In this document: one piece after another, positions 9,049-56,921 of the stretch
Layout of the letters: every line of letters starts with the position of its first letter
Numbering within the stretch: the first letter of the stretch is position 1
Assembly (NCBI GenBank): GCA_964016885.1
Contig: OZ024747.1
Location: 14,756,001 to 14,820,000 of the forward strand
Length of the DNA stretch: 64,000 nucleotides
Reading direction: 5' to 3'
Source of the DNA: Eledone cirrhosa
Lineage: Eukaryota
Position numbers and translations under genes: made by a program
Notes under the pieces: model-generated
What the model saw: the letters and a program-made list of their open reading frames with translations, nothing else
What the model was told of the DNA's origin: nothing
The model's database searches: none

Positions 9049-9256
9049 GTGAAGTAAGATAACAAGGACGATTGGTAACTCCTTCCCTACGTTTATTGGT
9101 TGGTGACGCGCGTTTCGCCACTGATCAGCTCAAGGTTCGATCTATATTTCACTATAATACACTCTGTCTTGATCTACACCTCGACACTGAAGTGAACCTA
9201 AACATCGAGTGCTCACCCGGGTGAACCTACAGTAACTCCAAGTTACAGACCTTGGA
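9049..9256 (-). mobile_element. Penelope-like pLTR fragment between (TA)n tracts with hammerhead 3' half
   Basis: Minus strand has GAAACGCGCGTC (GAAA - palindromic stem III - GUC). Homologous to 45281-45425 (acaaggacga...gcgcgtttcgc.actga.cagctcaaggttcgatc). Confidence 0.5.
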
Positions 9257-10624
9257 TGTATATATATATATATATATATATATATATATATATATATATA
9301 TATATATATATATATATATATATATATATATATATATATATATATATATATATATATATATATATATATATATATATATGCACATATGCATTGATACATG
9401 CATACATATGTACGTTCATATATACGTTACGTACATAAATGCATACATAATACTTTTAGGTGTCTATATGTATTTAGGTACGTATATATGAATATATCAA
9501 GGTACGTATATGTACACCTACATGTCTGTATATATTCGCCATTTTAATACTGCTAAAAATGATTGTTTACAAATGACAACATTTTAATTTAAAATCATTT
9601 GAGATTTCTCTTAAAGAAGTTAGAGAGGATCTTTCATGCAATACTATAGAGATTCGGAATAAAAGACATTAAATAAATAGAAAGATACATAAAAGACAAC
9701 AACACGATATTTCAACTTTATAACAGTTTATTTGAATTTCATTATTGCTATGACTCTATATATCACTCCTGTCTCTTATAATTAATCTACTTCTGTTATA
9801 TCAAAATATCAATGTCTCTTTTAAGAAGAACGCAGTTTTCATAACGATAACTATCTATTTGATATATGACTAACAAAGCGGTTTTACTTTATTCTCCTGT
9901 ATATCATATATGATAGTTGCTTTTGCAAGAGACTCTTTCTAAATGTTTGCATGAAGCAGATAGTAATGGATGATAATGCAATCATTCTTAAATTGCTTCG
10001 TTTGAATTACAGTATGTATTCAATTCATTTGCATTGATATAATCTTACAGTTGAAAAACAACATGGCTTCAATAAGAGGAATGAAAAGATTTTTCCAAAC
10101 AGGCGTTAATAAATGGAGTGATTTCTATAAAGGTGTTTACAATTATAGATAGAAACTGTTAACATCAGACAATTTTTACACGTTAATTATTATTAACTCC
10201 ACATTTATGAATATTGATCAATATAAATATTATATTTTTGCAGAAGAAAAAGTGTAGCATTTTGTATCAAAAATATAATGGCAGACACACACACATACGT
10301 AACTATCTAACTATCTGTCTAATATCTATACCTATCTCTCTATTGATCGGTCTATATCCCCTCTCCCCCTCTTTCTCCTCTCACATTATTCTCTCTCTCT
10401 CTCTCTCTCTCTCTCTCTCTCTCTCTCTCTCTCTCTCTCTCTATATATATATATATATATATATATATATATATATATATATATATATATATATATATAT
10501 ATATACTTAGGGTAAATATTGATGCAATTCAAATCAAGCACTCAACGTACTTATTCCACATAGGAGTGACGGAGTAATTATCGAATAAAGAAAAGCGAAG
10601 TAGTTTCAGATGTTCAAGTCTTTT

Positions 10625-10800
10625 AATAATAATTGTTTCTACTTTAGGCACAAGGCCAGCAATTACCCAGTGCATTACTGGTACTTTATTTTATCGACCC
10701 CGTAAGGATGAAAGGCAAAGTCAATCTCGGCGGGATTTGAACTCAGATCGTAAAGGGACTTAACTATGCTGGAAAGCATGGCGTCCGACCCCCTACCGAT
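10625..10800 (-). mobile_element. Meta-like tRNA SINE nested in repeat A
   Basis: Reverse complement of the family consensus, 5' few bases missing. Confidence 0.9.
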
Positions 10801-12096
10801 AATAATAATGATGTGATATATATTTCAATGGCGAAAGTTGCCACACTGTTCTGTGCGCCAGTTTCGCGACATCGTCAGACAGCTTGTTACATAATAAGGT
10901 TATGTTTCCGAGGCAATCCAAATTGAATCAACATGGGAACGGACGAAGTATGTGCTTTTGGGTTCTTCATCCGTTCCCCTGTGAGTACCAATTCACCCCC
11001 ACTGGTCTGCGCAAGCGCAGGTCCAGGGGGAAGTTGACCATTAGCTACCGCAGATTTCAACGAAATTCGCTCAGTCAGTTCCCCCTCTCAGCCAAACAAT
11101 GGCCCATTCAAGCCTGCACCGCAGTTTACTGCTACCCATCCCCTCTGTGGCAGTCAGACGAAGCCAGTGGGGATGGAAGAGTGTTAGTATTTACAGGTCT
11201 CTTTACTACCTCTCACAATCATGGACAGTATAACTGATCATCAACCCCTAAGAGAATATATTTAATTCTATGTATCATGGTTTCATATTGGAAGTTATAA
11301 GTGAAATTGGAACTAAAAATTACAATTTGAAATCGAAAATCCTAAATCAAGTATCAGAAATTAGAAATTAAAAAATTAACATTTAGAAATTAAACAATTA
11401 AAAACATTTTCAAGTGAGAATCCGGATTGAGGTGAGTAAAAAATATATATAGATTGAAGTGAGTAAATAATATGCTGAGAGATGTTTAAGTAAGAAGTTC
11501 TGAAAGGGGTCCTAATATTACAGTTACACTATCTACATACTGAACAATGGTACCGTACAGTAGAACTGAGGGTAAATTACAGTATGAAAGGTAGTAGTTA
11601 ACTGGGTACATAGTCGTAATTTCCATCACATGGAACAAAACCAATAAAAACATATATAAAGTACACAAAAGAAAAGAACCAATGAATGAATGAATGAATG
11701 CAAGAACACATAGAGTACATATATGCAAAATGATCCATATTATTGTCAATTTGTCCATGTATAGACTGAATTGAGGAGGCTTCAGTTGAAATGCGATTTG
11801 GTGCAGAAAAATAGGGGTTTATCTTTGTTTTTGTTTCCGCGTATTTATCCTGCCGAAAGTTATTATGTCCGTCCAGTATCATGGGTTTCCATCGCTGGTA
11901 GAGGGAATTTCCGGGTGTAGCTCGTGGTTGGCTCCTCTCCTCTCCACTTCCCCCTGGACCTGCGCTTGCGCAGACCAGTGGGGGTGAATTGGTACTCACG
12001 GGGGAACGGATGAAGAACCCAAAAGCATATACTTCGTCCGTTCCCATGTCGATTCAATTTGGATTGGCTCGGAAATATAACCTTATTATGTAACAA

Positions 12097-12170
12097 GCTG
12101 TCTGACGATGTCGCGAAACTGGCTCACAGAACAGTGTGGCCACTTTCACCATTGAAATATATATCACAGC
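12097..12170 (+). ncRNA. Type I hammerhead ribozyme candidate with long stem II (second copy on minus strand at about 10811-10883)
   Basis: GCTGT-CTGACGA-[long imperfect hairpin]-GAAA-TATATA-TC^-ACAGC; stem I GCUGU/ACAGC is perfect and stem III is a palindromic minimal loop. Confidence 0.7.
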
Positions 12171-54588: not shown

Positions 54589-55120
54589 GGCAGAAACATA
54601 ATCCACAGAAACATAATGTAAGTTAATAAACTAAGGCATGTTGTTTCGTCTGTTGATCTCCAGATTTAAGTCTGTATGTCTTCTGGATAACTAGATTGCT
54701 TCTTCAATAGATTACTTCTTCAATAAACCAAAATGTATTAGCTTTTCTTTATGAAAAGCTATCACAGTATATATTAAGTATAACGGACGTACTCGCTTAT
54801 TTTATAGCTACTATGGTAGCTATAAAATAACTTTTCTTAAGAAATAAATTATTCATATTTTCAGATTTACTCAATATCTTCACACCTTTGTTGGTCCGTT
54901 TATATTTCATTAGTGTTAAAATACGTAAGATCGATATATTTACAGCAATTGACATAAATGAAGGCGTGGTCGTTTGATGCAAAATGCATGCATTTTTCTC
55001 TTGTTCTAACACTGTAACAACTGTTTTATCTACGCATTTGTACAGTTAGATCTGTAAGCATGTAGTTCGCTATTCTTCACCCGTTATGTAAACACACATG
55101 CATGTGTTTCACTCACAAAG

Positions 55121-55790
55121 TTGTGTGTAAGCCACACAAAACCCAAGTGTGGCCTGCACCTACTGTTATACCACCAGAGCGCACGCCGGTATCACCGACA
55201 TGCCGCTCTCAACAACATATTGAGATTGAGCCTGGATGCAGCCGGCTTCCTATCACAACTGGAGCGAACAGAGCACGACAGCGGAGACGGCAAGCGCCAA
55301 GACGGAATAACCCTCTTTCCATTCGAAGAAAGTAAATCCCTCATCCGGGACGCCACATGTTGTGACACGTTCTCCGCTTCAAACTTAGTCATTTCGGCCA
55401 CAATCAACGATATTGTGGCCTGCAATGCAGAGGACAAGAAGACAAACAGGGTCTCCGGACTCCGGAAAGTTGAGCTCTATCGGGAAATTGGAACATCAGC
55501 AACCCGTCTCTGGAAGGAGCACTGTGAGGTGTCGTGGGCCATTGTCCGTAGAAATATATTTGCAGCTTTGTCCGCGGAACACAGACAAAACAGCATCCCT
55601 TCTGGGCCCAGAGCCCAGAGCCCATTACCCTCTTCTCTCTCCATTTCTTCTGTGGCCAAACAGTCCTTGTTTTTTTCCCTCATTTTCCTCTCATTTATGA
55701 AATGTATAGTCCTTTCCTCTACTTTCTCATAAAGCCAAATCTGCCCTTCTTTACCCCTTCTCCTTTTTCCAATTACTTAATTTAGTTGTT
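55121..55790 (+). mobile_element. 3' fragment of a CRE-like non-LTR retrotransposon (restriction-like endonuclease domain)
   Basis: GLHLL..HQSARRYHRHAALNNILRLSLDAAGFLSQLE...DGKRQDGITLFPF...LIRDATCCDTFSAS...AEDKK matches the decayed zinc-knuckle/RH...RPD...D RLE module (PD changed to QD); pyrimidine-rich 3' region follows. Confidence 0.8.
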
Positions 55791-56522
55791 ATCTTTCTTT
55801 TCATATCAATTGTTTAAGCTAACTTTATGAGTGAAACAACACACATATATATACATCATTTATGATTCTCATAATTAGCTACACGTAAACAGCACACATA
55901 CATACCATAATATATAATATATATATATATATATATATAAAATCAAGGTCTAGCAAATAGAGAATATATATATATATATATATAAATATATAAACACATG
56001 ATTGTTCATTAAAATAGTAATTCCTTGCCTGCATTACGGAATATTTCATGCATAAATACAAAGAGATATCCGAAGTCGTATGAACCGTACCATACAGATA
56101 TGTACACACTGATATCTGTTCTCTCTCTCTCTCTCTCTCTCTCTCTCTCTCTCTCTCTCTCTCTCTCTCTCTCTCTCTCTCTCTCTCTCTCTCTCTCTCT
56201 CTCTAACTCTCTCTCTCTGCCACTCTAACGTTATCTGTATAGGCATATATATGTACATACACACACCCACACACATATATATGTATATATATACATATAG
56301 ATTTATCCCGGGTTCAATCGGGGGTAACCACAGTAGGTAAGGTACTCAATACATAGCAGAGTATAAATATTTAATGTAGAAATTATCAGGGCTTCCTGAT
56401 GATTTCTCCCGAATAAAACAGTTCTAGTCCTGTAGAAGCCATATTTCTATATTTTTATATATATATATATATATATATATATATATATATATATATATAT
56501 ATATATATATATATATATATAT

Positions 56523-56921
56523 AATTGGTGTTGGATGCTTAAAGCGTCCGTATGCGGTAGGCCGTATGAGCACTCAATGCCTTCGTAGAGCAGAGTATGA
56601 TATCACAGAAAAAAGAGAATCAATGTTGCGACGAACAAATTTATTGGAGATACTACAATTGTTTCTTGGGCGACCAGCTCGAGGCACGATCGATATGGTG
56701 ATCAAACCTGACACTGAAATCGCGAGGTCGTCGGATACGTCTCGATTCAACAACAGGAAAATCTGCTTCGTAGAATCGAGACGTATCCGACGACTGCGCG
56801 ATTTCGGAGTCAGGTTTGATCACCATATCGAACAAGCCTCGAGCTGGTTGCCAAAGAAACAATTGTAGTATCTCCAATAAATTCCTTTCGTCGCAACACT
56901 GATTCTCCTTTTTCTTTGATA
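56523..56921. mobile_element. Fold-back element (about 150-bp arms, tail on left) with long-stem-II hammerhead
   Basis: Arms 56598-56749 and 56774-56921; right arm gagacgtat-CCGACGA...GAAACAATTGTA^-gtatctc. Confidence 0.8.

Follow-up and report, generated by a model that had tools for sequence, protein, structure and literature searches.

In (TA)n-targeting families of Penelope-like elements (PLEs), the two head-to-head arms of fold-back insertions are likely reverse-transcribed from one RNA at two fixed start sites. In one of these families (25252) a rearranged hammerhead core is predicted to fold and self-cleave, and the family is likely Naiad-derived. We give this combined reading a probability of about 0.78. 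The window analysed comprises 64,000 nt of Eledone cirrhosa (GCA_964016885.1, contig OZ024747.1, 14,756,001-14,820,000 of the forward strand).

Fold-back elements and hammerhead cores in the window

A sequence-only reading had described ten fold-backs that share one arm layout within (TA)n. All ten are present, with arms 85-100% identical that begin at the (TA)n edge, and the families behind them have about a thousand copies or more apiece. The fold-back form is the known insertion form of PLEs. The layout applies in general, but 56523 is reversed with its tail on the left. Element 10506 is a 3-kb arm pair in which the left arm bears the tail, and no (TA)n closes its right end at ~13547. The description as mostly non-homologous needs correction for 15326 and 28497, which are related (70-74% identity). 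The features are as follows, with PLE types as assigned in the next section.

25256..25784, + strand: family 25252, ORF-less element with a 624-nt tandem unit, flanked by (TA)n left and right; inverted arm at 25256-25492, direct arm at 25491-25751, then a 33-nt tail ending at 25784
10506..13547, no single strand: family 10506, ORF-less with a tandem unit of ~1.3 kb; a SINE within each of the two head-to-head arms, 10506-11947 (-) and 11957-13547 (+); 45-nt stem II in the type I hammerheads, which start at 12097 (+) and 10883 (-)
15327..15611, + strand: assigned Hydra-type PLE 3' end (family 15326), direct arm and 165-nt tail; inverted arm 15331-15423 with the hammerhead GAAA half only
24407..24979, + strand: assigned Neptune/Nematis-type PLE 3' end (family 24405), hammerhead from 24726 (+), 56-nt tail
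28249..28460, + strand: assigned Hydra-type PLE 3' end (family 28249), both arms with hammerhead, 64-nt tail
28497..28964, + strand: assigned Hydra-type PLE 3' end (family 28497), complete hammerhead with CCGAUGA core and long stem II in the inverted arm only
36424..36648, + strand: assigned Hydra-type PLE 3' end (family 36421), GAAA half only, 77-nt tail
39516..39959, + strand: assigned Hydra-type PLE 3' end (family 39516), both arms with hammerhead, 84-nt tail
41839..42046, + strand: family 41838, end of an ORF-less 546-nt tandem unit, 103-nt tail
56524..56918, - strand: assigned Hydra-type PLE 3' end (family 56523), 76-nt tail on the left, hammerhead with CCGACGA core and 62-nt stem II in both arms
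9049..9258, + strand: further fold-back in which the tail adjoins an inverted arm that has the GAAA half of a hammerhead with long stem II; a search for its parent element found none
23807..24181, + strand: relative of 36421, ~280-nt inverted arm, far longer than the direct arm, adjoining the final 46 nt of the tail
35578..35729 (also placed at 35568), + strand: fold-back of the 36421 family
45013..45180 (also placed at 45017), - strand: single tail-less arm of the 56523 family

Further such ends exist beyond the ten named, e.g. at 45282, 51106 and 27851.

Where at least six hammerhead cores had been claimed, seven of the ten elements contain a complete one within the window. The usual order is seen in 10506, 24405, 28249, 28497, 39516 and 56523, and the core of 25252, missed earlier, is permuted. 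15326 and 36421 hold the GAAA half alone; 41838 has no hammerhead here because that of its family sits upstream of the fold. The 41838 family hammerhead is of type I with a U3-A8 core and 9-bp stems I and III, and in the 36421 family the core reads UUGANAA and stem I is weak. The catalytic GAAA of 10506 is the one near 12154, after the 45-nt stem II, and a GAAA near 12115 is variable among family copies (GACA, GAGA, GATA). An Rfam search, suggested along with the sequence-only reading, gave no match at gathering score over the window (hammerhead, twister and HDV included). At E<=10 no hammerhead is among the best 150 of 444 matches listed for the window, and the 25252 arm has no hammerhead, twister or HDV match.

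Truncated ends of protein-coding PLEs and ORF-less units

Seven of the ten named elements are 5'-truncated ends of protein-coding PLEs, six Hydra-type and one Neptune/Nematis-type. Longer copies of these families elsewhere run into RT or GIY-YIG frames, which bears out the PLE link proposed earlier. A PLE frame was found at 17/30 loci of 28249, 14/25 of 24405 and 12/20 of 39516, and at 1/20 plus 7/20 in the 36421 group (L158 among its loci). The frame links of 56523 (2/20 and L264), 28497 (2/20) and 15326 (1/20, L089) comprise one to three loci each. PLE frames were recognised by motifs because Pfam matches are weak (RVT_1 for P0001) or absent (P0002 and P0003). Family 24405 has a full unit of 4058 nt at L081; its frame (P0001) exhibits, by eye, a CX2-5CxxC linker and CCHH in the C-terminal GIY-YIG, a Neptune/Nematis feature. 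In 28249 and 39516 there is a CxCX5C linker, with CxxC and CxH in place of CCHH. 15326, 28497 and 36421 likewise have CxxC and CxH ends, and the Hydra assignment of 56523 is a tblastn match only. DKT replacing DKG was found in L269, in family 28249 only. The 3' untranslated region of the 56523 family is ~2 kb long. A three-copy array of 28497 at C1 was considered as a full-length element and rejected as a local duplication, the adjoining PLE frame being another family's.

Only 10506, 25252 and 41838 are ORF-less head-to-tail tandem units with no PLE frame. The period is 621-628 nt in 12/25 loci of 25252, 546 nt in 6/20 of 41838 and 1.26-1.39 kb in at least 12/20 of 10506. The units of 10506 and 41838 contain a type I hammerhead, that of 25252 does not (permuted).

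Two start sites, one per arm

Site A denotes the 3' end of the element (distal start), site B a position 33-166 nt upstream (proximal start). (TA)3 follows the 3' end in 169/180 fetched copies as compared to 14% of random flank positions, in agreement with the view of (TA)n as a shared landing site. The tail-less state of the inverted arm, also noted before, is without exception (112/112 copies). This arm begins no more than 8 nt from site B in 95/112 copies, in 90 of these 95 directly after TA. At each start site there is a short AT microhomology to the target.

Head-to-head pairs were counted at loci outside each family's own search set, a few of which are re-fetches. We found 56 pairs of A+B, two of B+B and none of A+A (p ~1e-14 vs a 50% expectation). 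One start site per arm in head-to-head insertions (56/58) is a new finding. The fold point varies from copy to copy; hence the fold-back is formed anew at each insertion. The inverted arm exceeds the direct arm by >20 nt in 13/95 copies, and in L269 (family 28249) it contains a near-whole frame of ~2 kb. Direct arms of 36421 measure 126-144 nt in 16/17 copies, and most copies of several families are very short.

Both arms belong to one subfamily. The arms of L013 have 26 departures from the commonest letters in common, 20 of them recurrent. At an A/T site split ~48:52 among the 100 matches listed, 17/18 inverted pairs agree (by eye; p 7e-5). In family 28249 one diagnostic letter is unlike between the arms in 4/5 carriers, probably owing to query bias. 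These copies directly support that sites A and B are fixed, that fold points vary, that each arm uses one site and that both arms share a subfamily.

We propose that a dimeric RT-endonuclease nicks both strands of the (TA)n tract, the dimer presumably serving both primings. One target 3' end would prime at site A and the other at site B. The two cDNAs would stop independently and be joined head to head, giving the order (TA)n, tail-less inverted arm, direct arm, tail, (TA)n. ORF-less units may be mobilised in trans.

A predicted permuted hammerhead in family 25252

Family 25252 carries what is, by its predicted structure, a new non-circularly permuted hammerhead: the cleavage site comes first, then GAAA, then CUGAUGA, and self-cleavage is predicted. 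The elements are located as follows.

25638..25731, + strand: predicted permuted hammerhead
25638-25659: upstream hairpin
25661-25665: stem II, 5' strand
25674-25679: stem III, 3' strand (5' strand 25700-25705)
directly after A25680: predicted cut
25681-25688 with 25716-25723: stem I
25691-25696: stem II, 3' strand
25697-25700: GAAA
25724-25730: CUGAUGA; G25731 pairs with C25696
25260..25352, - strand: inverted-arm copy of the predicted permuted hammerhead, the second in the element, with a single mismatch in its stem II

Stem II thus consists of one core-proximal pair, the rest being provided by the upstream strand. The motif lies ~20 nt upstream of site B. It may fold into a hammerhead active site, and cleavage after 25680 could release unit-length RNA from tandem transcripts.

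Three order-only patterns gave 1,234, 3,627 and 908 matches genome-wide (~5,800) as opposed to 6, 0 and 0 for the reversed pattern; the 25252 core motif accounts for the 908 exact copies. A structure search in 1.1 Mb of loci yielded 50 matches, mostly of the 25252 family, with none in the reversed control or in any of three shuffles. The same motif pattern had two matches in metagenome contigs, both lacking the stems, and none in viral contigs.

Covariation of the stems, a check put forward with the sequence-only reading, was evaluated in two alignments. A1 holds 31 copies, with 9 of 40 cluster representatives omitted (junction chimeras, one deletion, one unrelated match); A2 also omits six copies with a linker one base shorter. 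In the 25 in-register copies 88% of cells pair and 10/18 pairs change on both sides, compared with 28-48% paired in slid controls; for all 31 copies the value is 79%. Across the 25-31 distinct copies there is covariation in stem I, in stem III and in the split stem II, whereby the covarying cells represent related copies, perhaps 8-10 lineages, rather than independent events. Counted apart, shorter-linker copies have UH in 13/14 and stems 83% and 89% paired. Among 90 distinct copies, none removed for pairing, UH is at the predicted place in 81; pairing reaches 92% in stem I and 90% in stem III (shifted registers 35-54% and 14-56%). CUGANGA, GAAA and UH are kept at the catalytic positions across lineages ~30% divergent. 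These data directly support the permuted order of the blocks, a conserved core, covariation in stems I and III and a split stem II.

The strand after CUGAUGA pairs at its first position only (76% of cells). A contiguous 5-bp stem II was rejected, as only 37% of cells pair. In the upstream-strand helix one pair only has changes on both sides, and no helix that would connect stems I and II at their far sides is evident by eye in A1. Type I, II and III readings of 25252 were rejected because no GAAA is within reach after CUGAUGA and a tandem reading of S-G-C never gives a circular order.

Probable link to Naiad elements

Naiads have been described as devoid of canonical hammerheads, some with 'half cores' (PMC8557442). 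By eye, the same permuted order is present at the 3' ends of Naiad_Obim, _Ovul, _Esco, _Amil, _Aacu and _Anas and in 5-6 more entries of uncertain label (PMC8557442 File S5). The hosts include Octopus, Euprymna and Acropora; nematode Naiads have the ordinary order with a long stem II.

Motif searches found no intact Naiad in this genome. The Octopus-consensus motif and a second RT-motif pattern had no match, and a back-translated RT motif had 17, all non-coding. WxPKxHK gave 25 matches, about a dozen of which are decayed Naiad frames with many stops. None of the 12 stretches around Naiad-frame matches has the permuted motif as its own 3' end; three hold one, each positioned like an independent insertion. 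The Naiad link is therefore made through published consensus sequences read by eye. The 624-nt unit has no frame, hence no N-terminal GIY-YIG fused to an RT with IFD, and the family is young (copies 98-99% identical). We conclude that 25252 likely derives from Naiad elements, by the shared 3' motif only.

It is moderately probable that Naiads and their thousands of ORF-less offspring carry an active hammerhead that is non-circularly permuted, with its four strands in a new topology (the stem II strand upstream, then the cleavage site, GAAA and CUGANGA). It would be the first of its kind encoded in animal genomes, conserved from cnidarians to cephalopods and arthropods. Earlier validated permutations of this kind are only metatranscriptome/metagenome RNAs and one bacterial candidate. 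If true, the hammerheads would have been reported absent because search descriptors assume the circular order, and the stated question of how so successful a PLE clade can apparently do without a ribozyme that other clades keep would be answered. Moreover, non-circular permutation of RNA would extend from environmental RNAs to animal genomes, and the known topologies would gain one in which another part of the chain provides the helix next to the core.

Alternative explanations

The sequence-only reading saw independent non-autonomous ribozyme retroelement families. This stands for 10506, 25252 and 41838; the other seven are shortened PLE ends. That all ten are such families, with the fold-back itself as the mobile unit, is very improbable and largely refuted by fold points that vary by copy and by the seven families that extend into PLE frames, although three are ORF-less tandem units and the very short copies of several families such as 36421 suggest that short end-only RNAs may also be mobilised. 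An origin of the fold-back through one template priming itself (snap-back), which has been suggested for Penelope elements of rotifers and is argued in PMC3846280, is unlikely. Arms from one subfamily and many nearly symmetric junctions fit such an origin, but either arm can contain sequence missing from its partner, the tail is on one arm, and the tail-less arm can be the longer one by up to a ~2 kb frame, so that extra template jumps would be needed. The chance that the palindromes are chimeric read or assembly artefacts, a concern raised earlier, is negligible. In four public runs contigs cover the 25252 unit deeply and none spans the fold, which is uninformative because the repeat is so abundant; arms differing by up to 15%, family-fixed start sites and the one-sided tail speak against it.

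For the permuted motif, a conserved RNA structure that binds RT or marks start sites, i.e. a non-cleaving relic or protein-binding fold, is a less probable yet sizeable alternative. It would suit the position close to site B, the discontinuous stem II and the minimum-energy nested fold of the window copy, in which a competing long hairpin would hide stem I. Other PLE hammerheads also cleave poorly or only with protein (PMC4209133, PMC11167929). However, conservation of the catalytic positions across divergent lineages and no G at the cleavage position in 81/90 copies speak against a non-cleaving fold.

Models of how PLEs produce inverted insertions, listed as an open issue in the literature consulted, have to accommodate both the single start site per arm and the evidence for a shared template of the two arms.

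Comparison with known systems

Hydra-clade PLEs (Craig et al. 2021, PMC8557442), among which an Octopus member is listed, resemble the families here in the C-terminal GIY-YIG, the CxCX5C linker, CxxC and CxH, and DKT. They also share a 3'-end hammerhead, (TA)n targets and an inverted 5'-truncated copy (noted for Penelope-13_HM). In contrast, several families here have 3' untranslated regions of 1-2 kb and stems II of 28-85 nt, and their CCGANGA or UUGANAA cores are absent from the canonical motif table (PMC8557442 File S2). Naiad PLEs share the (TA)n preference and, by eye, the permuted motif and in the Octopus entries also a comparable hairpin upstream, no more than ~100 nt away from the 3' end, whereas 25252 and its sister families have no frame.

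Type-SGC hammerheads (Eckert et al. 2023, PMC10085705) have the same order, conserved core, covarying stems I/III and ~3-nt stem I-II linker. Unlike these, 25252 is genome-encoded in an animal retroelement, and its cleavage is predicted while theirs is validated. The Type-SGC stem II 5' strand continues CUGANGA, whereas in 25252 this applies to the first pair only and the rest comes from the upstream strand; the 'Block C' assumption of PMC10085705 is therefore broken.

Non-LTR retrozymes (PMC7229834; bioRxiv 10.64898/2026.07.22.740005) are likewise ORF-less head-to-tail units with proposed PLE mobilisation and contain one hammerhead per unit. They measure 170-400 nt as compared to 500-1300 nt here. 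Our units differ in being dispersed, one to three at a time, in (TA)n and in having PLE-type inverted arms; 25252, moreover, lacks a type I hammerhead.

A tail bracketed by two internal RT start sites is also known from Anolis Poseidon PAc (Frangieh et al. 2024, PMC11167929). Both target strands are nicked and extended there, a dimer is predicted, and hammerhead cleavage is not needed for insertion in vitro. Start-site use in vitro is the same on both strands and involves no homology, whereas the genomic copies here almost always exhibit one site per arm with AT microhomology.

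Fold-back elements at (TA)n arrays

All ten fold-back elements named by the sequence-only reading (10506, 15326, 24405, 25252, 28249, 28497, 36421, 39516, 41838 and 56523, after their start in the window) are present. Each starts at a (TA)n edge and the arms of each are 85-100% identical; the proposed layout is (TA)n, inverted arm, direct arm, tail and usually (TA)n. Each element was used as query against its own genome (3.0 Gb), giving 992-3,406 candidates per query at first look, of which 40 per query were scored and 20-30 fetched; as these are the top-scoring copies, the fetched loci are biased to the window's own alleles. 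The proposed landing site in (TA)n is confirmed, since (TA)3 lies directly 3' of the element end in 169 of 180 loci from eight families compared to 14% of random flank positions. The inverted arm begins ≤ 8 nt from a family-fixed site (site B, 33-166 nt upstream of the 3' end, site A) in 95 of the 112 loci having such an arm, and in none of the 112 does it include the tail. The fold point differs among the fetched copies.

Hammerhead cores had been claimed for at least six elements; a complete core is found in seven of the ten window copies, half a core in two and none in one. The Rfam models suggested for checking them detected no hammerhead in the window at their cut-offs. The fold-back architecture is real and already known in type: an inverted truncated copy with one-sided tail, microsatellite target and hammerhead is described in the available parts of PMC8557442 and PMC3846280, and PMC4209133, likewise available in part, notes minimal hammerhead pairs on opposite strands, 100-700 bp apart.

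Other features of the window are as follows.

250-413, 24267-24383, 27071-27122, 42067-42273, 51914-52017, 56294-56455, 59061-59166: further repeat ends between (TA)n arrays, 5-113 matches in fetched loci; several look like more ends of Penelope-like elements (PLEs)
10624-10801 and about 20 other places: abundant SINE of ~180 nt; one copy is present in both arms of 10506, and other copies of that family have it at the same site
35084-35375, 35995-36311, 59583-59989: unclassified repeat family docked at (TA)n, opposite orientations, SINE inside
15641-15760: short inverted repeat divided by a (TA)n tract, no match in fetched loci
5761-7477, 57785-59100: decayed LINE reverse-transcriptase fragments, which we take to be RTE-like by their motifs
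60904-62808: 634-residue open frame, LINE ORF1-like, with CCHC zinc knuckle
37807-38961: minisatellite, 28-nt unit, 41 copies, 96% matches

Parent elements of the families

The suspected Penelope link is correct, as longer copies of seven families reach PLE frames. In family 28249 a GIY-YIG end with CxCX5C linker, CxxC and CxH lies upstream in 17 of 30 loci, and in one locus (L269) the frame is almost whole, DKT and YRDD included. Such GIY-YIG/DKT features characterize the Hydra clade, and according to the available text of PMC8557442 nearly all its families insert in (TA)n; hence we regard 28249 as Hydra-type. Hydra-type frames are also found upstream in family 39516 (12 of 20 loci), the 36421 group (1 of 20 and 7 of 20), 28497 (2 of 20) and 56523 (2 of 20 and additionally locus L264, ~2 kb away), while the one seen for 15326 (1 of 20) is enclosed by the inverted arm of that element itself. 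For family 24405 a complete unit of 4058 nt is present; with a CX4CxxC linker and CCHH, the family is assigned by sequence to the Neptune- or Nematis-type PLEs. The remaining families form head-to-tail repeats without a PLE frame: 25252 (624 nt), 41838 (546 nt) and 10506 (~1.3 kb). The view that the families are non-autonomous therefore holds for these three only, because longer copies of the other seven show protein-coding parents. Taken together, we put the probability that the elements are PLE insertions at about 0.9.

A third type of PLE, almost intact and matching RVT_1 and GIY-YIG, is located at L263:2675-5174. Families 15326, 28497 and 56523 normally have a CCGANGA core (U4 to C), and their stem I is well paired. 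The flanks of six loci (L245, L258, L301, L211, L112 and L286) hold more hammerhead families of ordinary order; their stem II is long, their stem III is a true helix of several pairs, and they are likely to escape standard minimal descriptors.

Origin of the fold-back

Sites A and B, both on short AT microhomologies, match in place the two internal start sites of a lizard PLE, which bracket its tail; there both target strands are extended and a dimer is predicted (PMC11167929, available in part). Counted only in loci that did not belong to the search set of the family concerned, the head-to-head pairs were 56 A+B, two B+B and no A+A, a few re-fetched places included, where free choice would give roughly half A+B. 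Moreover, both arms of one insertion come from one source. In locus L013 the arms have 20 recurrent subfamily letters in common, and at an A/T site that is split about evenly in family 25252 the arms agree in 17 of 18 inverted pairs (by eye, 100 of 908 rows).

Either arm can be the longer one, the inverted arm exceeding the direct arm in 13 of 95 loci, and this is not accounted for by a simple snap-back. We consider twin priming on one template probable: two RT subunits would prime from the two nicked target strands on the RNA of one element, with one start site per strand, one subunit at A and the other at B, and the two cDNAs would then be joined head to head. Two observations speak against this model: one letter of 28249 differs between the arms in four of five carriers, and the lizard PLE had no strand preference in vitro, as reported in the same portion of PMC11167929. 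The one-site-per-arm rule is new content and, together with the same-source result, extends beyond the findings in that portion.

A predicted permuted hammerhead in family 25252

The blocks of the 25252 hammerhead stand in an unusual order.

25680: UH site (A25680), 5' of GAAA, flanked by complementary strands
25697-25700: GAAA
25724-25730: CUGAUGA, without any GAAA 3' of it

The cleavage-side strands are predicted to form a stem III of 6 bp with the bases after GAAA and a stem I of 8 bp with the bases before CUGAUGA. This order (cleavage site, GAAA, CUGANGA) is type SGC in PMC10085705, as far as available. Scanning 1.1 Mb of fetched loci for all six block orders revealed the SGC order also in diverged families in the flanks; the SGC structure gave 50 matches, most of them 25252 itself, whereas the reversed control and all three shuffles gave none. 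At least eight lineages without an ORF carry the motif, and several of them repeat in tandem with periods of 445-753 nt.

Patterns of the GAAA/CUGANGA side matched the genome exactly 1,234, 3,627 and 908 times, versus 6, 0 and 0 times when reversed. They leave the cleavage-site block unspecified, hence its pairing is an independent test. Among 90 distinct copies UH is in place in 81, stem I is 92% paired (35-54% with shifted register) and stem III 90% (14-56%); 14 copies with a linker shorter by one base show similar UH and pairing. In a MAFFT alignment of 31 copies 79% of the cells are paired, and in one of the 25 copies in register 88%, compared to 28-48% in slid controls, and neither paired fraction nor covariation score was attained by any of 500 shuffles. 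The covariation looked for in the stems is found here, 10 of 18 pairs changing on both sides, a count that overstates independent events because the copies are kin.

Stem II is divided. Of the strand 3' of CUGAUGA, only the first position pairs with the base preceding GAAA (A-U, U-A, G-U, G-C; 76%), whereas the five bases before this core-proximal position form pairs in 90% of cells with a strand located 10-14 nt 5' of the cleavage block; one of these pairs has changes on both sides. A contiguous stem II of five pairs was ruled out (37% pairing). A small hairpin further upstream is discernible in 41 of 89 copies.

Judged from sequence comparison, the permuted structure is very probably real and conserved. 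Its self-cleavage is predicted with moderate confidence. For the window copy, the nested fold of lowest energy is another structure, a long hairpin in which stem I would be hidden; activity may hence need a switch or a protein.

Relation to Naiads and to type SGC

In the available part of PMC8557442, Naiads, a PLE clade, are described without canonical hammerheads, some being labelled 'half core', where the other half may lie on one side or the other. In the accessible passages of its File S5 we recognized the four-strand order by eye at the 3' end of Naiad_Obim, _Ovul, _Esco, _Amil, _Aacu and _Anas, with stems that differ among the six but pair fully in each. Five or six more entries show it, displayed without headers and, going by file order, from ctenophore, Clytia, Morbakka, spider and ostracod. 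The tally of ~11-12 of 54 entries stems from eye reading of these passages, where line breaks conceal some matches. The upstream hairpin is also common to the Octopus entries, and no such motif was noticed by eye in the bivalve passages.

Motif searches of the Eledone cirrhosa genome revealed decayed Naiad frames only, none with the permuted motif as its own 3' end. For the young 25252 family, the simplest guess is movement in trans by a Hydra- or Neptune-type protein. In nine loci (L416, L420, L421, L426, L427, L429, L431, L435, L439) the decayed frames look by eye like the Octopus Naiad consensus, which suggests a cephalopod host.

In the mostly open-access literature covered, no paper was found that reports a hammerhead of permuted order from PLEs or from the genome of an animal, and the available portions of bioRxiv 10.64898/2026.07.22.740005, PMC13725137, PMC7229834 and PMC13282606 describe none. 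The permuted, split-stem hammerhead of 25252 is new content; an upstream strand of stem II may, however, already be present in the HRIMA-1 alignments that accompany PMC10085705. It is apparently present across Naiads, as far as the File S5 passages indicate, where the nematode entries differ by ordinary order and a long stem II. The portion of PMC10085705 covered reports type SGC from metatranscriptome and metagenome sequences, and only one bacterial GCS candidate among permuted hammerheads in genomes of known organisms. There CUGANGA and its neighbouring paired strands are assumed to stay together. Family 25252 breaks this assumption and, owing to its split stem II, we call its motif a variant rather than a member of type SGC.
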